From contig NZ_JAENII010000011.1 in NCBI RefSeq assembly GCF_016595525.1, positions 101,450 to 165,449 on the forward strand: a DNA stretch of 64,000 nt, written 5' to 3'. Of the stretch, positions 38,576 to 52,626 are shown piece after piece. The DNA comes from Haloferula rosea (lineage in GTDB: Bacteria; Verrucomicrobiota; Verrucomicrobiia; Verrucomicrobiales; Akkermansiaceae). The notes beneath the pieces are model-generated. The model made no database searches. It was not told where the DNA came from and worked only from the letters and a program-made list of their open reading frames with translations. The translations under genes were made by a program, and so were the position numbers. Within the stretch, counting starts at the first letter, position 1, and each line of letters opens with the position of its first letter.

Positions 38576-40201
38576 TTAGAGGTTCCTCAATGACCGCGCG
38601 GCATCGCTCCGGGCGGCAAAGAACGCCGGAAGGAAGGCCGCTCCCGCGCACAGCAGGAAGGCCGCCACCCCGATGATCCCGATCTCCGTGGGATTCACGT
38701 AGGCCGGAAGCACATTGAAGCCGTTGAACGACGCCGGAAACGGGTCGAAACCAAACTGGCGCAGGAATCCCTGGATCCCCTCACGGAACCGGATGACCAG
38801 CAGACCCAGACCGATCCCGATCGCCGATCCCGCCGCCCCCAGGATCATCCCCTGATAGACGAACACCCACACAATCTGCCCGGGAGCCGCCCCGAGGGCC
38901 TTCATTACCCCGATCTCGCGCCGCTTCTGGATCGTCACGGTGAACATCACCGCCGTCATCGAGAAAGCCGACACCAGAATGATGAACGAAAGCGCGAAGT
39001 ACATCATCACCCGCTGCTGCTCGATCAACCGGGAAAAATCGCTGAGCTCGGTGATCCACGTGACCGGATACCATCCCATCGGCAGTTCCTTCATCATCAT
39101 CTGCGCCACCACCCCGGCCTGATAGGGGTCATCCAGACGAACCCCGATCCCCTGCACCTTGTCCCCGATCCCCGCCAAATCCTGCGCGAGGTGGAGCGGC
39201 ATGAACACATCCGGAGTCAGCGCCATCTGGGATGACTGATAGACCCCGATGATCTCCGCCTCTTTCGGCAGGACGATCTCCTCGACACTCTTCAGCACCG
39301 CGGCATCCATCTTCTCCACATCCGTCGTGTTGAGTTCGTCAAGGATGGCCAGAAACTCCGTCGGAGCCTCCTTGCCGAGCACCAGCTTGCCGGTGATCGC
39401 ATTCTCCTCCGCCACATCGATCAGCATCACCGCCTGATGGATGAACTCGAACTCCGCCTCGCGGATCGCAGGCTCATCCTCATACATGACCATCAGCGAT
39501 TCATAGATCGCGTTGAACGTCTCCTTGCTCAGCTCGGACACCTCACCCCTCACCGCCCAGCCGTCGGCGACCTGCTTGCGGATGGCCGCCAGCGCCTGCG
39601 CATGCTTCTCCCGCACCGGCGGCGCCTTCGTCTTCTCGAAGACCCGCTCGACTTCCTCAAAATTCCGCAAGGTCAGAAGCCGGATCGTATCACCCACACC
39701 CGCGCCGAAGGAACGTGCCACCTTCGAGGAAATCACCACCTTGTCATCCAAGCCCATGTCCGCCGCACTCTCCGGGTGGGCTTCCGTATCGAGCATCGCC
39801 CGGATGCCCTCCACCTCGAGCGGGTTCTCCGTATCCACCCCGCGGAAAGAGCCCGCCGAACGATAGGAATGGATGTCGATGAGCAGGCTGTCCTGCACGA
39901 ACGGACCCGCTTCCTGAATGCCCGGGAGCTTGGCCACCTGCTCCGAAGTCTCGCGCCAATCCGCCACCGGCATCGGGAACCCACCCATTGGCGCGTAGTC
40001 CAGGCGGACATGCGGGATGAATCCCAGCAAGCGCCCCTTCACTTCCCGCTCGAGTCCATTGTAAACCGACATCACCACCACCAGCACAAGCACCCCGAGC
40101 ATCACACCGGATACCGAGATGAGGGCCACCGCCGAAAGCATTGCACGGCGGGGATTGAGGTAGCGCCATGCAAGCATGAGGCTGAACGAGCGTCGGGCCA
40201 T
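38576..40201 (-). CDS. ABC transporter permease, FtsX/LolE/MacB-type with large periplasmic domain
   Basis: The track ORF was trimmed to MARRSFSLMLAWRYLNPRRAMLSAVALISVSGVMLGVLVLVVVMSV (the FtsX N-terminal signature; ATG at 40201, confirmed in the printed sequence). It has a ~270-aa periplasmic domain and C-terminal 3 TM helices with ...VMKALGAAPGQIVWVFVYQG... Confidence 0.7.
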   Translation of the reverse strand: MARRSFSLMLAWRYLNPRRAMLSAVALISVSGVMLGVLVLVVVMSVYNGLEREVKGRLLGFIPHVRLDYAPMGGFPMPVADWRETSEQVAKLPGIQEAGPFVQDSLLIDIHSYRSAGSFRGVDTENPLEVEGIRAMLDTEAHPESAADMGLDDKVVISSKVARSFGAGVGDTIRLLTLRNFEEVERVFEKTKAPPVREKHAQALAAIRKQVADGWAVRGEVSELSKETFNAIYESLMVMYEDEPAIREAEFEFIHQAVMLIDVAEENAITGKLVLGKEAPTEFLAILDELNTTDVEKMDAAVLKSVEEIVLPKEAEIIGVYQSSQMALTPDVFMPLHLAQDLAGIGDKVQGIGVRLDDPYQAGVVAQMMMKELPMGWYPVTWITELSDFSRLIEQQRVMMYFALSFIILVSAFSMTAVMFTVTIQKRREIGVMKALGAAPGQIVWVFVYQGMILGAAGSAIGIGLGLLVIRFREGIQGFLRQFGFDPFPASFNGFNVLPAYVNPTEIGIIGVAAFLLCAGAAFLPAFFAARSDAARSLRNL

Positions 40202-40258
40202 GCTTCTGCCTACCCGCCCCGAGCAGCGGGTGCAAGGCTCGCTGGTTCCCACCCCCCG

Positions 40259-41425
40259 CTATTCCACCTCGAGACAGATCGCCTTCAGATACTCCGCCTC
40301 GGCGAAGGCCGCCGGATGGTCCGGGGCATGCCCCGCCGTCCACAGCTCGTTCCAACGCCGCCCACTGCGACCCGCCTCACTGCGAACCGCCCCGAAGAAC
40401 TCCGAACTCGAGACATGCGCCGAGCACGAGGCCGCCAGCAGCACCCCGCCGGATCGCACCCTCGCCATCGCCGCCGCATTCAGCCGCCGATACATCCGCA
40501 CCGCGCCCTCACGGTCCCGCTCACGCTTCGCCAGCGACGGCGGATCCACGATCACCAGATCGAAGTCCTCCACACAGTCCTCGATCCACTCGAACACATC
40601 CGCCTGCACCCCCCGATGAATCGCCCCGTCCAAGGCCGGATTGAGCGCCATGTTCCGGCGCGCACTCTCCAAGGCATGCTCACTGATGTCCACATCCACC
40701 ACCCGGCTCGCCCCGCCCCGCGCCGCGTAGAGCGAAAATCCACCCGAGAAACTGAACAAATTCAACACCTCGCGGCCCTCCGCCATCTCCCCGACCCGCG
40801 CGCGGTTGTCGCGCTGATCGAGGAAAAACCCCGTCTTCTGGCCATGCCGCACCGCCGATTCGAAGCTCAATCCATTCTCCTCAAACACCACCACCTCCTC
40901 GCCCGGCTCACCCCGGAATCCCTCCTCGATGCCGAACTCACCCGCTGCCTTCACCAGATTCCGGCTCAGCCTCAGCACCAGATGATCCGGAGCGAACACC
41001 TCGCGCAGCACCCCCTCGATCTCATCCCAACGCGGCAGCCAGATCGCCGAATACAGCTTCACCACCAGCGTCCCCGCATAGCGATCCACCACCATCCCCG
41101 GAAAACCCTCGCTCTCCCCATTGATCCACCGCCCACCGTTGGTTCCCGCTTTGAAAACCACACCCTCCCGCTTCCCGCGCGCCTCCATCGCCCGCTCCAA
41201 CCACCAATCGCGGTCCACCGTCGCCGGCTTCCCCTGGTGCACCACCCGCACCCGGATCGGCGAATCCGGATCGTAAAGCCCGATCGCCATGAATCGGTCA
41301 CGCCGATCATACATCACCACGAACTCGCCGGCCTTCCCATCCCGGTTCTGCGTCTTGATGCTTTCCCCGAACACCCACGGATGCCCCGCCCTCACCGCGG
41401 ATTCAGCGCGGGGCAGCAAAGTCAT
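40259..41425 (-). CDS. rlmI: 23S rRNA m5C methyltransferase RlmI-like (PUA-like N-domain + class I SAM methyltransferase)
   Basis: ...RAGHPWVFGESIK... (PUA/EVE-like), ...VLNLFSFSGGFSLYAARGGASRVVDVDISEHALE... (SAM-binding fold) and DLVIVDPPSLAK (catalytic DPP motif). Confidence 0.75.
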   Translation of the reverse strand: MTLLPRAESAVRAGHPWVFGESIKTQNRDGKAGEFVVMYDRRDRFMAIGLYDPDSPIRVRVVHQGKPATVDRDWWLERAMEARGKREGVVFKAGTNGGRWINGESEGFPGMVVDRYAGTLVVKLYSAIWLPRWDEIEGVLREVFAPDHLVLRLSRNLVKAAGEFGIEEGFRGEPGEEVVVFEENGLSFESAVRHGQKTGFFLDQRDNRARVGEMAEGREVLNLFSFSGGFSLYAARGGASRVVDVDISEHALESARRNMALNPALDGAIHRGVQADVFEWIEDCVEDFDLVIVDPPSLAKRERDREGAVRMYRRLNAAAMARVRSGGVLLAASCSAHVSSSEFFGAVRSEAGRSGRRWNELWTAGHAPDHPAAFAEAEYLKAICLEVE

Positions 41426-41615
41426 GCGAAGTCGGGATCCACTCACCGCCCCAGCCTCTCGATTTCCCACCCCGCAACAACCCCGAATTCGGAACCTGCT
41501 GAAATCCCATCCTCAACGGGTTCCTCCTACCCCGGCATCACCCGGAGCATCAGACCTCACACTCGACGATACCATGATTCCACCTCGCACCCCTTGCAGG
41601 CGACAGGCCGATTGG

Positions 41616-42152
41616 TTACTCGAGCGCGAGGTACCGTCTGGCAACCCGGTCGGTCAGCCAGACCCCATTCTTCGATAGGAAAAAGGACAGACCTTCCCGG
41701 TGCATCTCACCAGACCGCACGACGAGCACCACGGGCTTGCCATGCCGCCGCCCGACCGCCACCGCGGTTGGCTCGTCCTGAGAAAGGTGCACGTGCTGTC
41801 GACTCCCTGGAATCACCCCTTTCTCGCGGATCGAATCCAAAAAACGCGTTGCGGTTCCGTGGTAGAGGATTTCAGGCGGCTCTTGCGGTGTCAGCCCGAG
41901 ATCCACTCGAATCGAGTGCCCCTGATTGGCTCGAATGCGTTGCCCATCTCCGGAGAAAGCAAAGCGCTGCTTGTTGTTCTCGGAAACCACCATCTCAAGG
42001 TGCTCTCGGGTAACCTCCCCTGACCCAGTCGAAAGTCGAGCGAGCAACTCATCCACATCGACCCAACCGCCGGAGTCCAATTGGAGTCCCAGATGCTCTG
42101 GATCGTGCCGGAGCACCAGACTCAGTAATTTGCTTAATCGCAGGTTGTTCAT
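41616..42152 (-). CDS. kptA: RNA 2'-phosphotransferase KptA/Tpt1 (NAD+-dependent)
   Basis: [32 protein letters not shown], ...[14 protein letters not shown]..., ILYHGT and ...VHLS... This is the full KptA signature over 178 aa. Its start overlaps the macro gene stop by 4 nt. Confidence 0.85.
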
Positions 42153-42643
42153 GACTCACAGGAAAGTAGTTGCTGATAGAGCTGAAGATCGTCGAGGTTG
42201 AAGCAGCAGAACGTGATTTCCAGCTCAGCAAAGAGCTCCGAACCACATGTCTCGACCGCAATCCTAGCCGCGCGATCCTTCGGATAGCCAAAAATGCCTG
42301 TCGAGATGCAGGGAAACACCACGGAGCGGAGGGAACGATCGACACAGATCCTCAAACATTCCCGATAGCATGAAGCGAGAAGTTCGGGTTCTCTATGGTT
42401 CCCGTCCCTCCAGACAGGCCCGACCGTGTGAATGATGTGGCGGGAGGGAAGCCGGTATCCTCGGGTAATCTTCGCTTGGCCGGTCTTGCACCCACCCAGC
42501 AGCCGGCATTCGTGCAGCAACTCCGGACCTGCAGCCCTATGGATGGCCCCGTCGACACCACCTCCGCCAAGCAGACTCGAGTTCGCGGCGTTAACGATGG
42601 CATCGACTTCCAACCTTGTAATGTCACTCTGGATGGCCTTCAT
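42149..42643 (-). CDS. Macro domain protein (ADP-ribose / ADP-ribose-1''-phosphate / O-acetyl-ADP-ribose hydrolase family, YmdB/Poa1-like)
   Basis: The track ORF was trimmed to [39 protein letters not shown]...IIHTVGPVW...[14 protein letters not shown]. This is the canonical macro fold. The start overlaps the upstream ARH stop by 4 nt. Confidence 0.8.
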
Positions 42644-43737
42644 GGAAATGAATCGGTTGATGGTTTGGTTGCAGGACCGGCAGGAAAGATGCCGATGAAA
42701 GGACGAGCCACTCCGTGGGCAAGCACGATGATGAAGAACCACAGGTTCCTCAGCAGAAGTGTCGGAGACCAGGCAGCACGGACCCGCAACTTTCGCTCCG
42801 TGGTCAGGGCCTCCGCCAACCTGGAAAGATCATCCATCGAAGTCGGCCACTCGCAAACACCCTGGATCCATTCTTCCGGGATAGATTCCGGACCATGCAT
42901 CGCTCCACATAGCGCTCCTGCAATCGCCCCTGCGGTGTCGGCATCGCCCCCGGCATCCAAAACACAACCCACGGTCTGCTCGTAATCCCAATGATGAAGA
43001 TTCCCCGCGTGAATCACCGCTGGAACCGTCTGAAACGCAAAACCACTGATCCCCCTGGCACAGCTGCCACCTATGGAATTCAGTAGATCTCCCACGGAAA
43101 GCCGCCGCTGATGGGCCGTTCGAAGCTGCTCGAGGATCTCATCCCAATCCTCCGTGCCATTCGGATCCCTGATGAGTTCGAGCGTCTCTCCGACTGTGGT
43201 CCGCTGAGAAATCGAAAAATGAGCGGCCAATTCAACGACCGCTCGCGATGCAGTCAATGCACGTGGATCCCGATGGGTGATCTTGGTCTGGAGTTCGTTG
43301 AAGCGCGTCCTCTGCTCAGCATCATCAGCGAAGACCACTCCGATGATCGCCGCCCTCATGCACGGTCCATTTCCTGCAGAAAAGACACCGGACTTGGACA
43401 TCGGAAACCCACACCACAACCTCAGGATGGATCGGGCCGTGGCGAGCCCCACACCGGCCGGCAGCCCCACCAGCCACCAACGCAACTGCCTCGCGAAGTC
43501 GCGACCAAACCGGACCTCTTCACCTCCACAGCAGCCCAATGCCTGAGCAAGCATCACGGAATGCTCGGTATCATCACTCCACATTCCTCGACCAAAAACG
43601 AAGCGATGCCTCCAGTCTCCCCTCCAGCCCCGCCTCTTGATCTGGGCGGGCGTCAGACCCTCCGCTGGAAGTCCCAAGGAATCTCCCACAGCCGTGCCCA
43701 TCAGGACACCTTCGATCGAACGGCGGTCCATCGTCAT
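42640..43737 (-). CDS. ADP-ribosylglycohydrolase family protein (ARH/DraG-like), copy 1
   Basis: ...[23 protein letters not shown]...[15 protein letters not shown]... and a C-terminal ...[22 protein letters not shown] (metal-binding D-x-D-T motif). Confidence 0.8.
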
Positions 43738-44699
43738 GCCTCAACCGGATTCATGGTTGCTACCTGATGAAGCCTGTCCGCCGTTTTTTTGATGCGATCC
43801 TTCCACGCCAGCTTGTTCAGCCATTCACTGGGGATTCCCTCCTGTCCGTAGTATGCACCAGCCAACTGACCATACACTGCGCCCGTCGTGTCCGCATCAT
43901 CACCAAGATTCACGGCGAGCAAGGCGCCCTCCCGAAAATTCTTGCCTCGATGAAATGCCCACAGCGCAGCTCGCAGGGACTCAACCACATACCCTGTTCC
44001 CCGAATCGTTGAGGATTCCGCCTCTCGATAGTCACCGTCGGCAATACTCCGGATCCTCGGTTCGAGCTCGCTCAAACGAAGCCCGGAAACCTCATACGCG
44101 TCTGAACCAAACAAGAGGTCTTCCTTCGAATAGCCCCTGATGGCACCGAGAATCAGGGAGCACAATAGACGACAGGCGTCCACCGCCTCGGTAGCACCAT
44201 GAGTGGTGCGTGAAGACTCAGCAGATTGTTCGACTGCGCTGACTGGGTCAGCCGCATAGAAGAGAGGAACGGGCGCAAGCCTCATGATGGAGCCGTTTCC
44301 AGCAGCCATCCGATCCATGGAGCCCGAAGCCCCAGTTCCAGTCACTCGATAGCTCTGAAGGGCGGACCGGACGGTATTGCCAATATCAAAGCATTCCCCG
44401 GTGACCGATAGGTGACCCTCCAGCCACCAGCGGAGGTAGGTTTCGCATTGATCACCCAAGTCCATCCCTTTGCTGACCAGCAGGCTCTCTGCCAGGCACA
44501 GAGCCATCGACGTATCGTCGGTCCATTGCCCAGCCTCCAAGCCGAAGGGTCCTCCTCCAACCATGTCGTCAATCGGTTCGAAAGCGCCCGGCAACTTGAA
44601 TTCAAGCGTGGTCCCCAGGGCATCCCCAACCGCCAGGCCTAAAAGGGAGCCTCTGAACTTATCCTTGGAGAGAGCATTCATCGCCAGGTTTTCGGTCAT
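43734..44699 (-). CDS. ADP-ribosylglycohydrolase family protein (ARH/DraG-like), copy 2
   Basis: ...FRGSLLGLAVGDALGTTLEFK...WTDDTSMALCLAESL... and a C-terminal ...NLGDDADTTGAVYGQLAGAYYG. It overlaps both neighbours by 4 nt. Confidence 0.8.
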   Translation of the reverse strand: MTENLAMNALSKDKFRGSLLGLAVGDALGTTLEFKLPGAFEPIDDMVGGGPFGLEAGQWTDDTSMALCLAESLLVSKGMDLGDQCETYLRWWLEGHLSVTGECFDIGNTVRSALQSYRVTGTGASGSMDRMAAGNGSIMRLAPVPLFYAADPVSAVEQSAESSRTTHGATEAVDACRLLCSLILGAIRGYSKEDLLFGSDAYEVSGLRLSELEPRIRSIADGDYREAESSTIRGTGYVVESLRAALWAFHRGKNFREGALLAVNLGDDADTTGAVYGQLAGAYYGQEGIPSEWLNKLAWKDRIKKTADRLHQVATMNPVEA

Positions 44700-45901
44700 A
44701 CTGCTTCATGAAGGTGGACTCCCGTCCCCTGAGACGCTTCCTGTTCAAGACGGATCACCTTGTCTGGGTTACGCTCCTTGGCGACCAGAACAGCGGTTAG
44801 ATCAGCGCCGGCATCCTTGAGGCGAAGCCATTCGTCGGCTTGAAGTTCAATCATCCGTTGTCGGTGGACCACTTCCGCTTCCTGCTTCTGGGTCAGAAGC
44901 TCGAGTTCCAACTGCTCCTGCTCACGGGTGCCACTGAGTTCATCCAGGCGCGTGCGACGGCTCAGGTCAAGTCGGTGGCTCAGGTTGCGTTGTTCTTCTT
45001 CGCGATCCCGCGCAGCCCGCTCATGATCCCGGGCCTGCTGCAAGTCGGCGACCTCCTGCTTCCGTTGCTCCGTCTCGGACTCAAGCAGCAGCCGAGTCCG
45101 GGTTTCAATCGCATTGTCGTGCATCTGCTGCAGCTTCCCCGGTGCGAGATAGCCGCGATAGACCACTTTGTTGATTCGATAACCGATGCGCTTTGCACCC
45201 GTAGTGAGCTCCTGATAGGTCCTCAAATCATTCAACCTTTCAGCATCCGACTTGAAGGTTTCGAAATCACTGCCACAGGCAAACTGAATCACATCTGCGG
45301 TCAATGCATTGATGAAATCCGCAATGGGGTCATGGGTCGATGCCAGCATGCGCTCGATGTCCATGAGTTCGAAGAACACCATCAACTTCACTGTCACCAG
45401 CGCCTCATCAGACGTACGAACCCCCTCGACATCAAAGTACATCTGATCCGGAATGACCCTCAACTTCTGGAACTTCAGTGCACCCGGCACCTTGCGTCCC
45501 TTACCGTTGTCGGCATGCCAACGGAACTGGTGCAACCATTCGTTCGGTTCCGGAACGTGGACCGCCGGACCCCGAAGAATGCAGTGACGGACACCCTCCT
45601 TTCCTTCGCGGTAGATGACAACGGCTTCGTGCGAATCCAAATCGATTGCCCGCTCCACGTCCATGCGGCTGTGAAGCAAAGGATCAAACCAACGTTCGCA
45701 AGGCCCGGGAATGTGCTCGGTGGTCCCGTCCGCATGATGAACCACGAGGAATTCACCGTCCCGCGCGACGCGTCTTGGCAGCATCTCCATCCGCTCAAAC
45801 GGCGCGAAGATGACGCTTGGTCCGGTGATGATTCGGCGCGTACCTTTGGGGCTCCATAAAATGGCAGCCTCACCGTCTCGGATGGTTCTTGGCAGAATCA
45901 T
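44696..45901 (-). CDS. SPFH/band-7 domain protein with N-terminal unknown domain and C-terminal coiled-coil
   Basis: The central segment ...VRTSDEALVTVKLMVFFELMDIERMLASTHDPIADFINALTADVIQF...YRINKVVYRGY follows the stomatin/prohibitin SPFH pattern, followed by a Glu/Arg-rich coiled coil. The assignment is by pattern only. Confidence 0.5.
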   Translation of the reverse strand: MILPRTIRDGEAAILWSPKGTRRIITGPSVIFAPFERMEMLPRRVARDGEFLVVHHADGTTEHIPGPCERWFDPLLHSRMDVERAIDLDSHEAVVIYREGKEGVRHCILRGPAVHVPEPNEWLHQFRWHADNGKGRKVPGALKFQKLRVIPDQMYFDVEGVRTSDEALVTVKLMVFFELMDIERMLASTHDPIADFINALTADVIQFACGSDFETFKSDAERLNDLRTYQELTTGAKRIGYRINKVVYRGYLAPGKLQQMHDNAIETRTRLLLESETEQRKQEVADLQQARDHERAARDREEEQRNLSHRLDLSRRTRLDELSGTREQEQLELELLTQKQEAEVVHRQRMIELQADEWLRLKDAGADLTAVLVAKERNPDKVIRLEQEASQGTGVHLHEAV

Positions 45902-46857
45902 GTTTCTTGGAGTTGTTTGATGACCTCAATCGGGCCATCAAGATTGCGATTGAATTCGTCGAGATCCTCCGCAGGGATCCAGTATTCCTCGTGCTCCCGA
46001 CTTCCAACGATCTTACGTTCATACTTGCTGAGGAAACTTCGCTTCACCCTGAATCGGGTAACAGCAGCCGATCCGGAATCCGGAACGTTCCATTCTCGGG
46101 CGATCTGTTCAGCATAGCCTTCGTTGGTGACGGGATAGAAGATGGGCTGTTCTGGTAGGCGGGGCGGCCAGCTTCGAAAGCTGCCCTGCACAAGTTTCGT
46201 CAACTCCTCAGGCCCAACCGGGCGGTAAAGGGTTTCCGTTTCGGCCATCACCTCCTCCACAGAACAGATCTCAACCCCTCTACTCTCCATCGCCTCAATA
46301 GCCATCCGAACATCGCCACCTTTCAGGTCCACCCCCTCGCAGGCATCCTCCACCAACACAGTTCTGAATCCTTCATCAACGGCGTCCAGGGCAGTAAACT
46401 TGACACAGTAGTCAGTGGCCACGCCCACCAGATGAACTTCGGTCACCCCTTCACGTTTCAGAAGCCCTGCAAGTCCGGTTGAACGACGACGGCCGTTGTC
46501 AAAAAAGCCACTGTAGCTATCGACCCGAGTATCCCCGCCCTTGCGCACAATGTGGTCGATACGGTGAGTATGGAGTGACTCGGGAAACTCGGCACCTTCC
46601 GAACCAGCCACACAGTGAACGGGCCACAGGATCTGATCAAGCCCGTCGAGGTCAACGACTTCACCGGGACTTCGACCCTCGTGGTTGGCAGCAAAGCTCC
46701 CGTGATCCTTCGGGTGCCAGTCCTGAGTGGCGACAACGAGTTCATAGGACGGCATCAACTCGTTGATTAGCGGGATGACACGATCCGAACCAGACACGGC
46801 CAACGTGCCGCCCGGGAGAAAGTCGTTCTGGATATCGATGACTAAAAGCGCCTTCAT
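45898..46857 (-). CDS. pncA: Nicotinamidase/pyrazinamidase PncA (isochorismatase fold) fused to a ~120-aa C-terminal domain of unknown function
   Basis: MKALLVIDIQNDFLPGGTLAV...DWHPKDH...WPVHCVAGSEGAEF...VHLVGVATDYCVKFTALDA (catalytic Cys in TDYCV, metal-binding D/H/H). The C-terminal extension ...IFYPVTNEGYAEQIAREWNVPDSGSAAVTRFRVKRSFLSKYERKIVGSREHEEYWIPAEDLDEF... is unassigned. Confidence 0.75.
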   Translation of the reverse strand: MKALLVIDIQNDFLPGGTLAVSGSDRVIPLINELMPSYELVVATQDWHPKDHGSFAANHEGRSPGEVVDLDGLDQILWPVHCVAGSEGAEFPESLHTHRIDHIVRKGGDTRVDSYSGFFDNGRRRSTGLAGLLKREGVTEVHLVGVATDYCVKFTALDAVDEGFRTVLVEDACEGVDLKGGDVRMAIEAMESRGVEICSVEEVMAETETLYRPVGPEELTKLVQGSFRSWPPRLPEQPIFYPVTNEGYAEQIAREWNVPDSGSAAVTRFRVKRSFLSKYERKIVGSREHEEYWIPAEDLDEFNRNLDGPIEVIKQLQET

Positions 46858-46869
46858 ATTAGCTTTTTG

Positions 46870-47559
46870 TTAGAGCTCGAAATTGAAACCCTTTTTGAGC
46901 AATGCCTTGTACTGCTTTTGGTCGAAGCGGTAGAGACGAGCAGCCCGATGAGCCACATCGCTCTGAACCTCTTCCGTCTCCTCAAGAATCCCGAGTTTTT
47001 TGACCTTCTTTCGGAAGTTCCGCTTGTCGATCTCCTCGTCGAGGATGCGCTCGTAGAGCTTCTGGAGTTCGGTAAGAGTGAATTTTTCGGGCAGCAGTTC
47101 GAAGCCAATCGGTTCGTATCGAAGCTTGCCCCGCAAGCGTTCGCGGGCGGTCTCGAGGATCTTGCCGTGGTCGAACGCGAGAGTCGGAAGATCATCGAGC
47201 GGAAACCAAGCCGCCTTGCGGGCGTCCGTATCGGCTCTTGGCTGATGCTCAAGCAGGTTGACCAAGGCGTAATAGGCGATGGTCACGACGTGCTCCCGTG
47301 GATCACGCCGCGGATGCCCGAAGCTGTAAAGTTGCTCAAGAAAGACGTTCTTGAGACTGGTCTCTTCACGCAACTCACGGCGTGCACTTTCATCAATGTC
47401 CTCGCCCACGCGAACAAAGCCGCCAGGCAGCGCCCATCGAGCTTCATAGGGCGGGATGTCCCGCTGGATCAACAAGACCTTCAGATCTTCGTCGTCCAAT
47501 CCAAAGACCACACAGTCAGTCGTCAGGGCGGGGCGGGCGTATTCGTAGGTGTAGCTCAT
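46870..47559 (-). CDS. nrtR: Nudix-related transcriptional regulator NrtR-like (Nudix ADP-ribose-binding domain + C-terminal winged-helix)
   Basis: The track ORF was trimmed to [20 protein letters not shown]. The Nudix box is [24 protein letters not shown]. The C-terminal ~90 aa (...[35 protein letters not shown]...RLYRFD...) resembles the NrtR DNA-binding wing. The gene lies immediately upstream of pncA and next to nadE and pncB. Confidence 0.65.
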
Positions 47560-47649
47560 AGAAAATTTGGCCAAATATTGAACCCGGCTGAATGAGGACC
47601 TGCACCATCCAGCACTGCAGGCCCCCTCAAGGTTGACGGGAAGCAAGCT

Positions 47650-47697
47650 CGTGTAATATCAACACTAAGTCAACCCCTAAGTGTCAAAATAACACTT
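47650..47697. promoter_or_regulatory. Two tandem palindromes xGTGT-N7-ACACT upstream of the nrtR-like gene (candidate NrtR operators)
   Basis: cGTGTaatatcaACACT (47650-47666) and aAGTGTcaaaataACACTt (47679-47697) lie in the 208-bp gap between nudix2 and nrtR. They share the half-sites of the site upstream of pncB. Confidence 0.45.
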
Positions 47698-47767
47698 CTA
47701 GAAAATCAAGTAGGAATGAACCAGCACGATTGGGTCCGACCCTAGGCCTTCGCCGCACTTCACCGAG

Positions 47768-48199
47768 TTAGTCCAACTCACGGAATGCCCGCCGGAGGAT
47801 CTCGGCATGATCAAAGGCCAGACGTGGTAGATATCGGACAGGGAACCAGTCGAGCGCCGCCGCATCATCAGCCGCTCGTGGGCAAACCGTCGCCGCATCA
47901 ATCTTCGTCCAGAAGGCCAGCGACACCGTGTGTCCCCGGGGATCCCGCCCGGGATGCCCCCAGAATCCGAGCGGTTGAAACTTCAAGCCTGTCAGCTCGG
48001 TCTCTTCCTCCAGCTCTCGTTCAACCGCCCGATACGGATCTTCGTCCTCGTCGAGAAAGCCACCAGGAAGGGCCCAGTCACCCGCAAAAGGAGCGTGCTT
48101 TCGCTGGATCAGCAACACCTTCAAAGAGTCGCACTCACCGGAGAACACGATGGCATCCACAGTGACGGCGGGACGTGGATATTCGTAGGTGTAGCTCAT
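47768..48199 (-). CDS. Nudix hydrolase (ADP-ribose pyrophosphatase-like; paralog of NrtR Nudix domain lacking DNA-binding domain)
   Basis: MSYTYEYPRPAVTVDAIVFSG... has the same N-terminus as the NrtR-like gene. The Nudix box is GGFLDEDEDPYRAVERELEEETEL. It is 143 aa. Its start overlaps the nadE stop by 4 nt. Confidence 0.75.
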   Translation of the reverse strand: MSYTYEYPRPAVTVDAIVFSGECDSLKVLLIQRKHAPFAGDWALPGGFLDEDEDPYRAVERELEEETELTGLKFQPLGFWGHPGRDPRGHTVSLAFWTKIDAATVCPRAADDAAALDWFPVRYLPRLAFDHAEILRRAFRELD

Positions 48200-50136
48200 G
48201 CCTTCAAGGTCAGCTCACGGAGTTCATCTTCGAAACCACTGCTCAGGATCGGGAATCGACACCAGGTTTTGGGATCCAAATTCTCATCGTCCAGGTGAAA
48301 GCTCGGGGCGTAGCGCTCCCTCTTCCATTGGTTTCTCGACCAGAGCATGAAGAACCGAACCACCCACTCCTTGATAACCTTCTCATCATACTCGGGAAAG
48401 CGATGGCAGGTGAGGCAAAGCACTTCGGCCGGTGCATTCTTGTCCCGAATGGCGAGGCGTTCGATGTGATCAAGCACTGCATAGGGCATGAGATCACCTT
48501 CGTCGGTTTGCTCCTGCTCCGCCGGGCGGAGCTCGGCGGTAGGTCGCTGACCGTTGACCGCCGACAGCGCAGGCACAGCCGGAATGCCGTGGCCACCCTC
48601 GGTCTCCAACCACCGCAACCAATGGAGAAGGAAAGCCTTATCAATTCCCGCGATGGGACTCAAACCTCCACATGTATCGCCATCCATGGTGGCGTAGCCT
48701 ACAGCTGCCTCCGAACGGTTGCTGGTCGACAGCAAAAGGGCCTGCCGGAGGTTCGCCATCATCCAGATCCCTGGTGCCCGCACCCTGGCCTGAATGTTCT
48801 GCAAGGTGATATCATCCTGCTCCCAGTCGAGAGGACGTCCAAGCGTGTTCTCCGCGAGGCTGCGATACTGGTCAACCGCAGGTTGCACATCCCATTCGGC
48901 AAACTCAGCATCGAGTGCATCGGCCAACTGGCGGGCGGCATCTAGCGTAACAGCTCCACTATTCTCAGTCGCCTGATAGACGCATAGCAGGAGGTCCGCT
49001 GCATCAGTCTTCCCGCCGAGGTGGCCAAGTTTGCGATCGAATGCCTCACCGCCAAGCTCCTCCACGGCGAGCACGCGGGTAAGATGCACGAGACAGGCCA
49101 CGGCGGAGGAATCCGCCCCACCGCTCAGCGACACCACGAAGCCGCCTGAACGGCTCTTTCTCAGGTAGTCAAAGAGACCAAGGCAGACCGCTCGCGTAAA
49201 CTCCACTTCCTTGGTCAGGGTCGTCGCCACCTCAGGCAAACTCGGACAGTCGCCACAATTCCAACTGAAAGGCACACGCACAGCTGGCCCATCCTCCGGT
49301 CGCGGCTGCTGAGCCACCGTGCGGGCCTGAGCAAGGCGATTGCGGTCTAGGTCGACGACCGCGGAGCTCACCTCATGATCGAGGAAAGACAATCGACGGG
49401 TTGAACAAATCAGCTGCCCATTGCTGGCGATCATTCCACCTCCGTCGTAGATCACCCTGCCGGCCTCATTTCCCACCAAATTCGCGTAGACATAAGCCAC
49501 GCCGAACGCCCGGGAACCCTCGCTCACGAATTGCTCGCGAATGCTGTGCTTGGCGAACGCGAAGTGGCTCGCGCTGGGATTCAGAATGATGTCGACACCA
49601 AGCCCTGCCAAATGCCGTCCAGGGCGATCAGCCACCCATGCATCTTCACAAATCTCGAAACCTATCCGCACCCCACCAAGGTCGAAGGTCAAGTCGCCCA
49701 GGGGGATGAGATCTCCGTCCACTTGCACAACGGCCTTCACCCCTGACGGCCATGGTTTGAACCAACGGGTCTCGTAGTGCAGCCCATCGCCGGCGAGATT
49801 CTGCTTCGCGTGAAAGCCGAGCAGCTTTCCTTTCGCGATCAAGGCCACAACGTTGTAAACCGCATTCTGGTGCCGGAGCGGGAGGCCAATGGCTACTGCC
49901 ATTCCCCTGGTTTCAGGAAGCAGCTCCCGGAGCTGGTCCAGGGCTCGATCACAGATGTCCGGCGCGAGAAACTGGTCTTCGCATCCATAACCTGTGAGGG
50001 TGAGCTCCGGCAGGCAGAGAAGGTCCGCACGTTGCGCCCGTGCATCCGCAATGCAGTCACCAATGCGCCGCAGGTTGCCACTCCAATCAAGTGGCGTTTG
50101 ATTCACAGTGGCCGTAGCGAGTCGAATCGTCTTCAT
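48196..50136 (-). CDS. nadE: Glutamine-dependent NAD+ synthetase (N-terminal nitrilase/CN-hydrolase domain + C-terminal NAD synthetase domain)
   Basis: The 646-aa protein reads MKTIRLATATVNQTPLDWSGNLRRI...ADLLCLPELTLTGYGCED (CN hydrolase), then ...VVSLSGGADSSAVACL (PP-loop SGGxDS) and NAD synthetase motifs. Confidence 0.9.
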   Translation of the reverse strand: MKTIRLATATVNQTPLDWSGNLRRIGDCIADARAQRADLLCLPELTLTGYGCEDQFLAPDICDRALDQLRELLPETRGMAVAIGLPLRHQNAVYNVVALIAKGKLLGFHAKQNLAGDGLHYETRWFKPWPSGVKAVVQVDGDLIPLGDLTFDLGGVRIGFEICEDAWVADRPGRHLAGLGVDIILNPSASHFAFAKHSIREQFVSEGSRAFGVAYVYANLVGNEAGRVIYDGGGMIASNGQLICSTRRLSFLDHEVSSAVVDLDRNRLAQARTVAQQPRPEDGPAVRVPFSWNCGDCPSLPEVATTLTKEVEFTRAVCLGLFDYLRKSRSGGFVVSLSGGADSSAVACLVHLTRVLAVEELGGEAFDRKLGHLGGKTDAADLLLCVYQATENSGAVTLDAARQLADALDAEFAEWDVQPAVDQYRSLAENTLGRPLDWEQDDITLQNIQARVRAPGIWMMANLRQALLLSTSNRSEAAVGYATMDGDTCGGLSPIAGIDKAFLLHWLRWLETEGGHGIPAVPALSAVNGQRPTAELRPAEQEQTDEGDLMPYAVLDHIERLAIRDKNAPAEVLCLTCHRFPEYDEKVIKEWVVRFFMLWSRNQWKRERYAPSFHLDDENLDPKTWCRFPILSSGFEDELRELTLKA

Positions 50137-51497
50137 GCAGCAAATCCGTTGGTTTTGAGAAGCTGGCCCTTGATCACCTCGATCCCCTCGTCGATCCTTA
50201 CAACAGGAGACCCTTGGGCAAGTTGAGCCCAGGATTTCATCGCCTGCTCTCGGATTTCATCGATGGAGACATCCGGTAGAACCCGGCAACCACTACGAAC
50301 CGCCGGAACCAGTAGCTCGCTGCTTCCTTCAGGCAGACGACTTTCGGCCTCATTGAACAGAAGGTCCTCGATCACCTTGCCCTCGGCATCTCGTGTACGG
50401 GCGACCTGAAGCACGCCGGGATTCGAAACCTTGATCCGATCATTCGACAGCTTGATTCGGTATTTCCAACTGCCGTCTCGATTTCTCAGGGCTCCCAACT
50501 TGTAAACGCCCCCGAGGGCCGGCTGCTCAGCCGCGGTAACGAGCATGGTGCCAACACCCCATATGTCGATTCGCGCACCCGCCGCCTTGAGATCACGGAT
50601 CTTCGTAACGTCGAGGTCATTGCTGGCGATGATCTTGGTATCCGGCAATCCGGCCTCATCGAGGATTAGACGCGCCTCGATGCTCAAGGCAGCAAGATCA
50701 CCAGAATCCAAACGAATCCCAAGCAGCTCGTAGCCACCCGCCCGGAGTTTATGCCCAACTTTGACCGCATTGCGTACTCCTTCAAGCGTATCGTAGGTAT
50801 CCACGAGCAGGACCGCATTGTTTGGCATCGATGCCGCATAAGCTTCAAACGCCTCGAGTTCGGTATCGAAACTCATCACCCAGCTGTGGGCATGGGTCCC
50901 CTTGACGGGAATTCCATACAATTGACCCGCAAGAACATTCGAAGTGCCAACGCAGCCACCAATATAGGCCGCACGACTTGCACTTAGACCACCGTCCGGT
51001 CCTTGAGCACGGCGAAGCCCAAACTCGAAGATCGGATCTCCTCCAGCAGCCGCACAAAGCCGGGCTGCCTGGGTCGCGACAAGCGTCTGGAAGTTGACAA
51101 GATTCAAGAGGGCGGTCTCAACCAGCTGACACTGAAGCAAGGGACCGCGAATCCGCATCAACGGTTGGTTGGGGAACACCAACTCACCCTCCGGGATGGC
51201 ATCAACCTCCAACTGCCAATCGAGCCCGGCGAGGTAGGCAAGATAGCCCGACTCGAAAAGCCCCTCCCCGTCGGCACCCTTGAGCAAACCTAGATAGGCG
51301 AGGTCGGACTCACTAAAACGAAGCCCATCAAGAAACTCTGAGGCGGGCCCGGTACCAGCAACAATGGCAGCATCACCACCAAACGGCGCCCTCCTGAAAA
51401 ACAGATGGAAGACTGCTTCCTGCTCGGCCATGCCTTGCTTCCAGTAGCTGTAACCCATGGTCAGCTGGTAAAGATCTGTGAGGAGGGGTGACTTCAT
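50133..51497 (-). CDS. pncB: Nicotinate phosphoribosyltransferase
   Basis: The track ORF was trimmed to MKSPLLTDLYQLTMGYSYWKQGMAEQEAVFHLFFRR (canonical PncB N-terminus; ATG at 51497, confirmed in the printed sequence). ...GTHAHSWVMSF... carries the phospho-His motif. Confidence 0.85.
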   Translation of the reverse strand: MKSPLLTDLYQLTMGYSYWKQGMAEQEAVFHLFFRRAPFGGDAAIVAGTGPASEFLDGLRFSESDLAYLGLLKGADGEGLFESGYLAYLAGLDWQLEVDAIPEGELVFPNQPLMRIRGPLLQCQLVETALLNLVNFQTLVATQAARLCAAAGGDPIFEFGLRRAQGPDGGLSASRAAYIGGCVGTSNVLAGQLYGIPVKGTHAHSWVMSFDTELEAFEAYAASMPNNAVLLVDTYDTLEGVRNAVKVGHKLRAGGYELLGIRLDSGDLAALSIEARLILDEAGLPDTKIIASNDLDVTKIRDLKAAGARIDIWGVGTMLVTAAEQPALGGVYKLGALRNRDGSWKYRIKLSNDRIKVSNPGVLQVARTRDAEGKVIEDLLFNEAESRLPEGSSELLVPAVRSGCRVLPDVSIDEIREQAMKSWAQLAQGSPVVRIDEGIEVIKGQLLKTNGFAA

Positions 51498-51510
51498 GCC
51501 AAACCTATAT

Positions 51511-51527
51511 AGTGTATTTTTTACACT
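51511..51527. promoter_or_regulatory. Perfect 17-bp palindrome AGTGT-N7-ACACT 14 nt upstream of pncB start (candidate NrtR operator / promoter overlap)
   Basis: agtgtattttttacact is a perfect palindrome with an odd centre. It sits in an AT-rich pocket (tatat just 3' of it on the plus strand) of the pncB/GalU-like divergent intergenic region. Confidence 0.45.
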
Positions 51528-51777
51528 TACAACAATTTTGTGCGATGCAGCCCTCCCCTTGGGACATCCCAACACCCCATCGAGGGCAAGACCCAGATCG
51601 TGTCGGGACCTTTCCCACCGGACCGGTGATTGCTTCAGATCATAGGTCTTCTTCGAGTTGTGACTGATTCGCGAAACGTCCTCCCCAGTCCAGCGAACCC
51701 ACCCGCAATCCCTTTTTGCCATCGCCCTGACGCCGCAGTCTGCCCAAGCTCGCCGCAGCCACCTCTCCCGCGTATTC

Positions 51778-52626
51778 ATGAAAATCAACAAGGCGGTGAT
51801 CACCGCTGCCAGCCCGGAACATCGGACGCTCCCCATCCAGTCCCTCATCGACCACGATGGCGTCGAGCGAAGCGTCATCGAAATCCTCCTCAATGAAGTC
51901 CAGTCCGCCGGCATCGAAGACGTCTGCGTGATCGTCCACCCCGGCGACGCCGAGGCCTATCAGCAGGCCGCCTCCGGCACCTCGCTCAAGCTCCATTTCA
52001 TCGAGCAGACCGAGCGCCGCGGATACGGCCACGCCCTTTCGCTGGCCGCCGACTTCACCGCCGGTGAAAGCTTCCTCCACAGCGTCTGCGATCACCTCTT
52101 CATCAGCCGGGATCCGGACAAGTCCTGCGCCCGCCAGCTCGTCGAGTCCGCCAAGCGCGAGGGCTGCGCCATCTCAGCCGTGCAATCGACCCGCGAAACC
52201 GAAATCCAGCACTACGGCGCCGTCGCCGGTGACCTGCAACGCGGCAGCTCCGCCCATCCGCTCTACGCGATTCGTGAGGTCATCGAGAAGCCCACACCAA
52301 CCATCGCCGAGCAGAAACTCATCGTGCCCGGCCTGCGCAGCGGCCGCTACCTGACCTTCTTCGGCATGCATGTCCTCACCCCCACGGTCATGACCCTGCT
52401 GAAACACCAGACCGACTCCGGCGCCGACAACATCCAGCTCTCCCCCGTCCTCGCCGAGCTCGCCAAGCGCGAACAGTACGGGGCCCTTCTAATCCAGGGT
52501 GACCGCCACCACGTCAGCCTGAAGTACGGCCTCTTCCGTGCCCAACTCGCTCTCGCCCTCGCCGGCCAAGAACGTGAGCAGATCCTCAGCGACCTGCTCG
52601 AACTCGTCGCCCACTCCCGCCGCTGA
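51778..52626 (+). CDS. Sugar-1-phosphate nucleotidyltransferase-like protein (GalU-like fold) with degenerate glycine-rich loop
   Basis: MKINKAVITAASPEHRTLPIQSL... aligns to the GalU N-terminus (KAVIPVAGLGTRMLPATKA). The nucleotide-binding G-loop AGLGTR is replaced by ASPEHR. The rest (...AGIEDVCVIVHPGD...RRGYGHAL...) follows the rmlA/GalU pattern. Confidence 0.45.
   Translation: MKINKAVITAASPEHRTLPIQSLIDHDGVERSVIEILLNEVQSAGIEDVCVIVHPGDAEAYQQAASGTSLKLHFIEQTERRGYGHALSLAADFTAGESFLHSVCDHLFISRDPDKSCARQLVESAKREGCAISAVQSTRETEIQHYGAVAGDLQRGSSAHPLYAIREVIEKPTPTIAEQKLIVPGLRSGRYLTFFGMHVLTPTVMTLLKHQTDSGADNIQLSPVLAELAKREQYGALLIQGDRHHVSLKYGLFRAQLALALAGQEREQILSDLLELVAHSRR

Follow-up and report, generated by a model that had tools for sequence, protein, structure and literature searches.

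Ten minus-strand genes in a 64-kb stretch of the Haloferula rosea genome (the whole stretch analysed, hereafter the window) form a unit that we interpret, by a slight balance of probability, as a two-promoter, NrtR-repressed regulon for the turnover of nicotinamide adenine dinucleotide (NAD) and for de-ADP-ribosylation, arranged around a vault-like cage. Its downstream part, six open reading frames (ORFs) that fill positions 41616-46857 of the window, all on the minus strand, had been described in an initial annotation as an ADP-ribosylation cassette comprising a fusion of the nicotinamidase PncA, an SPFH membrane scaffold, two ADP-ribosylglycohydrolases (ARH), a macro domain hydrolase and KptA (Tpt1). 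Profile searches confirm the identities of PncA, the two ARH proteins, the macro protein and KptA, five of the six genes. The two parts that the annotation left unexplained are the most informative: the 'SPFH' gene product is short, soluble and homologous to the major vault protein (MVP), and the C-terminal domain of the PncA fusion has an ADP-ribosyltransferase (ART) fold.

The SPFH-like gene encodes a short major vault protein homologue

The product of this gene, which we call mvpL, is a 401-aa protein that on its own matches nothing in Pfam, NCBIfam or the PDB sequences, even at E≤10, and the Band_7 profile likewise failed to match it at E≤10. An NCBI entry from H. rosea has a sequence 100% identical to it. 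Searching the same three collections with a first, closely related alignment of its family also gave nothing, and MVP was reached only when the alignment was made more diverse. With a profile of the diverse family members, MVP was the sole match among 177,635 PDB sequences (human MVP, E 9.2e-7), and the alignment covers MVP repeats and shoulder residues 516-600, the latter falling on the family's most conserved block. When the shoulder alone was used as a profile, MVP again ranked first but at E 0.12, which is not significant, and the 'keyhole loop' was left unaligned. Matches to Pfam Vault_3 occur in 8 of 31 family members, and longer members pass its curated cutoff of 28.8 (P0243, 809 aa, 44.1 bits; P0241, 30.3 bits). 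The family as a whole comprises 1712 representative clusters, with lengths from about 400 to 809 aa, and is slowly evolving, at 44-69% identity across phyla.

The AlphaFold model of the 401-aa protein (31 homologues in the alignment, predicted local distance difference test score 83.8) has three beta-repeat modules (approximately residues 1-145), an alpha/beta SPFH 'shoulder' domain (approximately residues 150-255; 152-252) and a single helix of 109 residues (255-363), followed by a short conserved C-terminal tail ending in LHLHE. In a Foldseek search of this model against the PDB, the top 12 matches are all MVP (E 3.5e-14 to 1e-10), with stomatin, flotillin, erlin and HflK/C ranking after it at E 4e-8 and weaker. 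The protein has the vault-type beta-repeats, SPFH shoulder and long cap helix of MVP, and three repeat modules where a full MVP has nine repeats and about 860 aa. The SPFH fold proposed in the initial annotation is therefore borne out by the predicted structure, although sequence searches gave it no support; the membrane scaffold is not, as the protein lacks any hydrophobic segment that could serve as an anchor (the maximum 19-residue hydropathy is 1.26, inside a beta-strand).

The shoulder of human MVP contains a pocket, lined by K506, P508 and D521, that binds NAD+ and ADP, and a complex with ADP-ribose has been deposited as PDB 9mxj (PMC12280208). Human vaults house PARP4 and the NADase TEP1 (PMC12280208; bioRxiv 10.64898/2026.05.01.722283); the NADase that they contain is active, and their shoulder carries natively bound ADP-ribose (bioRxiv 10.64898/2026.05.01.722283). 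Judging from the sequence alignment, the invariant K137-x-P139-x11-P151-D152 of the bacterial family would lie in ungapped register with human K506, P508, P520 and D521. On the strength of the homology to MVP and of the two recent reports on human vaults, we predict that the MVP-like protein assembles into a ring or cage and binds ADP-ribose or NAD+; the parallel that this would draw with NAD+/ADP-ribose binding by the human vault is striking.

Several family members depart from the short form. P0243 (L090:3824-6253), from an AT-rich soil metagenome contig, has about nine repeats and the length and layout of a full MVP; its neighbours are all unannotated, and a word-indexed homologue search with it returned just the query. 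A planctomycete subclade carries an N-terminal MshEN domain (57-64 bits; L068:9392-11287, L080:9485-11236 and L081:2646-4532). MshEN is a receptor domain for cyclic di-GMP. Neither an NrtR gene nor its operator lies near these genes, and in this subclade the same cage protein seems to be linked to another nucleotide signal. Other N-terminal extensions are present in members from Myxococcota.

A minimal ADP-ribosyltransferase fold fused to the nicotinamidase

The C-terminal third of the PncA fusion has no Pfam match even at E≤10. It has an ADP-ribosyltransferase fold and belongs to a very large family, here termed mini-ART, whose members are mostly stand-alone proteins of about 115-125 aa. The family gave at least 7999 matches, at 59-69% identity across phyla, and searches of its members against Pfam, NCBIfam and PDB sequences gave nothing significant. 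Residues R5, Y34, T60, H82 and E84 are invariant and are candidates for an H-Y-E or R-S-E catalytic motif. Fusion of a nicotinamidase to an NAD+-cleaving fold makes chemical sense, since it would remove the nicotinamide product.

Mini-ART and KptA occur together in the window and in six related loci (L012, L019, L031, L085, L087 and L089). Among loci with an MVP-like gene, mini-ART is found in four (the window, L012, L019 and L031), each with KptA, while the other three are KptA-containing NrtR operons in which it stands alone. In Pedosphaera parvula (L084:5099-10768) a stand-alone mini-ART gene lies between a Band_7 gene and genes for RtcB, an RNA ligase, an HD/AAA_33 kinase-like protein and two RlaP nucleotidyltransferases, the position that Tpt1 occupies in the repair cluster of Runella. 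Two further stand-alone contexts were uninformative.

NrtR-type operators mark two promoter regions

Immediately upstream of the PncA fusion lies an NrtR-type regulator, with Nudix and winged-helix domains, whose orthologues in three related loci (L001-L003) likewise have 229 aa. Palindromes of the form AGTGT-N7-ACAC(T) precede nrtR and pncB, with none between nrtR and pncA; across the 64-kb window 0.30 strand matches to this motif would be expected and 5 are present, all of them in the two promoter regions. The motif is present in 61 of 80 related loci, always near the starts of nrtR, pncB, pncA or mvpL, with 205 strand matches where about 10 are expected. It lies upstream of pncB in many of these loci, forms a tandem pair upstream of nrtR in most of them, in the same place as in the window, and stands directly before mvpL in loci where nrtR is not adjacent (L006, L051 and L072). 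The claim in the initial annotation of an NrtR-type regulator with palindromic sites is thus well founded, as is that of a PncA supplying the adjacent PncB-NadE salvage route. ADP-ribose is the effector of NrtR and releases it from DNA (PMC2330246); as a property of the family, we infer that free ADP-ribose likewise releases NrtR from the operators of the H. rosea locus.

The small Nudix protein encoded at 47768-48199 is paralogous to the Nudix domain of NrtR and has no winged helix; its Nudix box is intact and it shares the N-terminus MSYTYEY with NrtR. From its sequence it is likely an ADP-ribose pyrophosphatase. The Nudix box of NrtR itself is nearly intact.

Conservation of the locus across genomes

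A scan of one genome per species yielded 80 mvpL loci, in which six-frame ORFs were searched with the window proteins; same-strand partners of mvpL were counted in those 54 that had sufficient flanking DNA. The loci come from Verrucomicrobiota, Planctomycetota, Acidobacteriota, Armatimonadota, Omnitrophota, Lentisphaerota, Myxococcota and others. Confinement of the linkage to a single genome, which the initial annotation had said would tell against its proposal, does not hold: the linkage recurs in the first six of these phyla. NrtR accompanies mvpL in 45 of the 54 loci, ARH in 36, PncA in 35, PncB in 31, NadE in 26, KptA in 26, and a macro protein or PARG in 21. NrtR and the MVP-like protein make up the conserved core, usually together with PncA; KptA, ARH and macro or PARG are frequent accessories. 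That KptA belongs to the accessories follows from its presence in just 26 of 54 loci, against 45 of 54 for NrtR. KptA and an eraser occur together in 25 loci, erasers without KptA in 15, KptA by itself in 1 and neither in 13. The commonest gene order is pncB-nadE-nrtR-(ARH)-pncA-(PARG)-(ARH)-mvpL-(Nudix)-kptA, shuffled between lineages, and the arrangement is reduced to a minimal nrtR-mvpL pair in four loci (L003, L030, L042 and L060).

A different, anchor-less Band_7 protein fills the place of mvpL beside KptA in NrtR operons of the Opitutae type (L087 and L089). Alignment of the MVP-like family with the L087 Band_7 protein in hhalign gave no significant match, so we regard the two as analogous SPFH proteins of separate families; the substitution strengthens the functional tie of SPFH-type cages to ADP-ribose metabolism.

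Genes for DUF4291, NADAR, DUF1152 and a bacterial-type PARG recur in the NrtR/KptA operons of L085, L087, L089 and L001, as does an unannotated protein of about 315 aa adjoining Band_7; DUF4291 often adjoins KptA. In planctomycete loci, the gap of about 500 bp between mvpL and kptA was considered as a site for a vault-like RNA, a candidate that we rejected as the gap holds a gene for a Nudix ADP-ribose pyrophosphatase.

KptA and the hydrolases

KptA scores above the curated cutoffs of its profiles (Table 1), and among characterised homologues it is most similar to Tpt1 of Runella slithyformis (E 1e-51). The essential Arg-His-Arg-Arg tetrad is kept: R15, H16, R63 and R118 align with Arg16, His17, Arg64 and Arg119 of the Runella enzyme (PMC6097658). 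For ARH-1 the closest named model is that of the immunity hydrolase Tri1, an ADP-ribosylarginine hydrolase (329 bits, cutoff 490). A DraG/nitrogenase reading of the ARH genes, which the initial annotation had held capable of overturning its proposal, was rejected, since they score only 173 and 92 bits with TIGR02662, far below the equivalog cutoff of 337; the ORF lists of the window contain no nitrogenase genes. ARH-2 ends in a hydrophobic tail (approximately residues 318-350, window 42643-42786; hydropathy 1.84) with the pattern WxPxLLLRNLFFLxVVLxHGFxRLxP. This tail, with invariant R-N and H-G, is found in 19 orthologues from several phyla that adjoin an MVP-like gene, and it could be a membrane (tail) anchor or a docking peptide.

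These enzymes are the basis of the reading proposed in the initial annotation, in which KptA is a dedicated writer on 5'-phosphorylated RNA or DNA ends and the macro protein and two ARH proteins are its erasers, together forming a reversible switch similar to DarT/DarG with nicotinamide recycling. The intact catalytic tetrad is consistent with such a role, and 25 of the 26 loci with KptA also carry ARH, macro or PARG. Streptomyces KptA ADP-ribosylates 5'-phosphate RNA, a modification that a MacroD-type protein reverses (PMC6582358), and ARH3, PARG and MacroD enzymes remove phosphate-linked ADP-ribose (PMC8883491). However, Runella Tpt1, the nearest characterised relative, showed no activity in capping 5'-phosphate DNA and is a true 2'-phosphotransferase (PMC6182162), the locus lacks a two-gene toxin-antitoxin architecture, and PADLOC matched no defence model. 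KptA is present in just 26 of 54 loci, and the conserved core is instead NrtR and the MVP-like protein. The linkage of KptA to erasers therefore stands, whereas its centrality does not, and an obligate writer-eraser pair is contradicted by the 15 loci that have erasers without KptA and the 13 that have neither. We consider this reading improbable.

The kinship with Runella Tpt1, which lies in an RNA-repair cluster (PMC6097658), is among the grounds for a second reading, RNA end-healing: KptA and mini-ART would process 2'-phosphates or RNA ends, the macro protein would clear ADP-ribose-1''-phosphate and cyclic phosphate, salvage would replace NAD+, and the SPFH/MVP-like protein would hold RNA or enzymes. 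The company of RtcB, RNA ligase, HD/kinase and RlaP genes around the stand-alone mini-ART of Pedosphaera agrees with this, as do the hydrolysis of the Tpt1 by-product by macro domains (PMC8883491) and the RNA content of eukaryotic vaults. Yet no ligase, kinase, 2H or RtcB gene was among the families detected in the window and the 80 related loci, no RNA family was detected in the window, KptA is absent from many loci, and two ARH genes are left unexplained. We give this reading little credence as an account of the whole operon.

The resemblance of ARH-1 to the immunity hydrolase Tri1 suggests a third reading, modelled on the systems centred on ADP-ribosylglycohydrolase (ARG) with NrtR or WYL that were predicted by Iyer et al. 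2022 (PMC9503650). Here the hydrolases would undo the ADP-ribosylation of host molecules by toxins of phages or competitors, NrtR would sense the released ADP-ribose, and the MVP-like protein would serve in chaperoning or sequestration. ARG systems under NrtR regulation, with Macro or NADAR as accessories, occur in planctomycetes and other bacteria (PMC9503650, section 3.8), the accessory genes of the mvpL loci differ between genomes, and antiphage relatives of TEP1, a vault component, are known (bioRxiv 10.64898/2026.05.01.722283). Against this, the systems of Iyer et al. are defined by the absence of a linked ART, while the H. rosea locus carries both KptA and a domain with the ART fold; the MVP-like protein evolves slowly; the operon is joined to housekeeping NAD salvage genes and has ordinary housekeeping flanks; the sole PADLOC match was a generic Nudix model; and no MVP-like relatives were found in 2.9 million viral contigs. 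Such a counter-defence role appears unlikely to us. These three readings overlap with one another, and they are not mutually exclusive.

Layout and extent of the operon

The full unit is pncB-nadE-nudix, a 208-nt gap, and nrtR-pncA::ART-mvpL-arh1-arh2-macro-kptA (Table 1); the genes that flank it in the window are ordinary housekeeping genes. The true ATG of pncB is at 51497, its start being read as MKSPLLTDLYQLTMGY; the listed ORF reaches 51914 solely for want of an in-frame stop. All five junctions of the six-gene chain read exactly as the initial annotation had given them, with ATGA at 45901-45898, 44699-44696, 43737-43734, 42643-42640 and 42152-42149. Further 4-nt overlaps lie upstream, between pncB and nadE (50133-50136) and between nadE and the nudix gene (48196-48199), and ATGA overlaps are also present at three unrelated sites in the window (19703, 8102 and 1635; the overlap frequency is rough, as the simple greedy gene caller skipped some real junctions). 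The overlaps mark a compact, co-translated operon and are not proof of fixed stoichiometry; gene order is shuffled among relatives. The co-expression first proposed holds in the form of a co-transcribed cassette under NrtR, and stoichiometric coupling is not supported.

A scan of 41300-52000 for sigma-70 promoters found no site, terminator-like matches were no commoner than chance, and an Rfam scan of the window found no RNA family. A plus-strand ORF of 858 aa (39437-42013) that lies over kptA and downstream genes was rejected as a GC-rich antisense artefact with an R/P/H-rich translation.

Table 1. Genes, domains and operators of the H. rosea unit (window positions)
Feature	Position	Strand	Evidence
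pncB, nicotinate phosphoribosyltransferase	50133-51497	-	NF006695 512 bits (cutoff 469)
nadE, glutamine-dependent NAD+ synthetase (CN_hydrolase + NAD_synthase)	48196-50136	-	profile searches
small Nudix hydrolase	47768-48199	-	PF00293 E 4e-20; NF050029 74 bits
nrtR, Nudix-winged helix-turn-helix repressor, predicted ADP-ribose-responsive, 229 aa, ATG 47559	46870-47559	-	NrtR_WHD 103 bits; NUDIX 76 bits
PncA fusion protein	45898-46857	-	ORF list
nicotinamidase (PncA) domain, residues 1-207 of fusion	46237-46857	-	NF008623 236 bits (cutoff 174; residues 2-206); Isochorismatase 96.6 bits
C-terminal 112-residue domain of fusion, minimal ADP-ribosyltransferase fold	45898-46236	-	no Pfam family
mvpL, short major-vault-protein-like protein, 401 aa	44696-45901	-	predicted structure, Foldseek, family profiles
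ARH-1, ADP-ribosylglycohydrolase	43734-44699	-	PF03747 261 bits; NF041672 329 bits (cutoff 490); DraG 173 bits (cutoff 337); metal-site motifs intact
ARH-2, divergent ADP-ribosylglycohydrolase with conserved hydrophobic C-terminal tail	42640-43737	-	PF03747 177 bits
macro domain hydrolase, MacroD/YmdB-type, 164 aa, internal ATG start 42643	42149-42643	-	PF01661 164 bits; NF001664 227 bits (cutoff 200)
kptA	41616-42152	-	PF01885 179 bits (gathering cutoff 26); NF002014 256 bits (cutoff 239)
NrtR-type operator, about 15 nt upstream of pncB start codon	51511-51527		AGTGT-N7-ACACT palindrome
two tandem NrtR-type operators, nudix-nrtR intergenic	47651-47696		47680-47696 perfect AGTGT-N7-ACACT; 47651-47666 AGTGT-N7-ACAC

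A model for the operon

We propose that accumulating ADP-ribose, the footprint of non-redox use of NAD+, would derepress both promoters. PncA, PncB and NadE would then rebuild NAD+ from nicotinamide, while both ARH proteins and the macro domain (or PARG, in relatives) would strip ADP-ribose from macromolecules, with ADP-ribose-1''-phosphate and O-acetyl-ADP-ribose as alternative substrates of the same three proteins; free ADP-ribose would then be destroyed by the small Nudix enzyme. KptA and the ART domain fused to PncA would be the NAD+-consuming members, with 2'-phosphates or phosphorylated RNA ends as their most likely substrates. The nicotinamide and the ADP-ribose phosphate species that arise as by-products would be recycled by the neighbouring enzymes, with the PncA fusion clearing nicotinamide at its source. 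The MVP-like protein, the best conserved component apart from the salvage genes, is predicted to use its long helix and C-terminal tail to form a ring or cage of the SPFH/vault type, and its shoulder to bind ADP-ribose or NAD+ as that of human MVP does. Such a cage would concentrate or organise the enzymes of the operon, perhaps docking ARH-2 by its conserved tail.

Several observations weigh against this model. Joint induction of NAD+ salvage and of NAD+-consuming enzymes (KptA and the ART domain) seems odd, and the ART-fold domain could be a non-catalytic binder of NAD+ or ADP-ribose. NrtR scores 180 bits against the NCBIfam equivalog NF050029, below the cutoff of 400. Seven of the 54 loci have none of the counted partners, and neither NrtR nor its operator accompanies the relatives, often N-extended, from Myxococcota and from some Planctomycetes. 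The H. rosea 401-aa protein has no Pfam match of its own, and the HMMER alignment with MVP stops short of the keyhole loop, which forms much of the human pocket.

A further step, which we offer tentatively as a minority possibility, would be that the 401-aa protein is a genuine short MVP that builds a bacterial 'mini-vault', its shoulder binding ADP-ribose or NAD+, and works with KptA, mini-ART and the hydrolases under an ADP-ribose sensor; the link between vaults and NAD+/ADP-ribose would then be ancestral and predate eukaryotes. What vaults do is a question of about 40 years' standing. If the mini-vault reading is true, cultivable Verrucomicrobia and Planctomycetes would offer a tractable system in which to address it.

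Comparison with known systems

NrtR regulons, ARG-centric NrtR systems and the chemistry of Tpt1 and macro domains are already known. What appears to be new is a short MVP homologue that, in several phyla, is the hallmark of an operon controlled by ADP-ribose, together with a very large family of ART-fold domains of about 115 residues that lacks a Pfam or NCBIfam model and is here fused to a nicotinamidase. A literature search found no description of an NrtR-linked short MVP family or of the mini-ART family, and an earlier mention may exist.

The locus shares with the NrtR regulons described by Rodionov et al. 2008 (PMC2330246) the Nudix-winged helix-turn-helix repressor, the palindromic operators before pncA, pncB and nadE, and ADP-ribose as effector; in Streptomyces, nrtR adjoins a draG-like gene (PMC2330246). 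The H. rosea locus differs in adding the MVP-like protein, two ARH proteins, the macro protein, KptA and the ART-fold domain, and a text search of PMC2330246 for Planctomycetes and Verrucomicrobia returned nothing. The ARG-centric NrtR/WYL systems (PMC9503650) are alike in their NrtR-type sensor, ADP-ribosylglycohydrolase core and optional Macro or NADAR, and in occurring in planctomycetes. However, they are without a linked ART and typically carry rhodanese-phosphatase, chaperone and restriction endonuclease modules, whereas the H. rosea locus has NAD salvage genes, KptA, the ART-fold domain and the MVP-like protein.

In DarT/DarG, as here, an enzyme of the ART superfamily that acts on nucleic acids is encoded with a macro domain hydrolase, yet DarTG is an obligate two-gene toxin-antitoxin pair, whereas in the mvpL loci the writer is dispensable (15 loci with erasers only); DarG did not reverse the products of KptA (PMC6582358). 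The HD-Pnk/ligase/Tpt1 clusters of Runella slithyformis contain a close orthologue of the H. rosea KptA with the same R-H-R-R tetrad, but the H. rosea locus is without a ligase or an end-healing kinase/phosphatase. Unlike the membrane SPFH cages (stomatin, HflK/C, flotillin, prohibitin, erlin and QmcA-YbbJ), the mvpL product has neither a transmembrane or hairpin anchor nor an NfeD partner, and its N-terminus consists of vault-type beta-repeats.

With the eukaryotic vault the MVP-like protein shares beta-repeats, an SPFH shoulder and a long cap helix, as well as sequence similarity to the MVP repeats and shoulder. Bacterial MVPs have been reported before, with about 820 aa, from Cyanobacteria, Myxococcales and Cytophagales (bioRxiv 10.1101/2023.11.10.566534). 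The mvpL product has three repeats and 401 aa in place of the nine repeats and roughly 860-890 aa of eukaryotic MVP, and its locus lacks TEP1, vault RNA and a partner of the PARP4 MINT type. The eukaryotic vault and the MVP-like protein are both linked to NAD+-consuming enzymes of the ART superfamily, and the human shoulder takes ADP-ribose and NAD+ as its ligands (PMC12280208; bioRxiv 10.64898/2026.05.01.722283). According to the structures of 2025-2026, NAD+ and ADP-ribose bind the MVP shoulder and the vault encloses an NADase; an independent bacterial link through genome context would support that direction.

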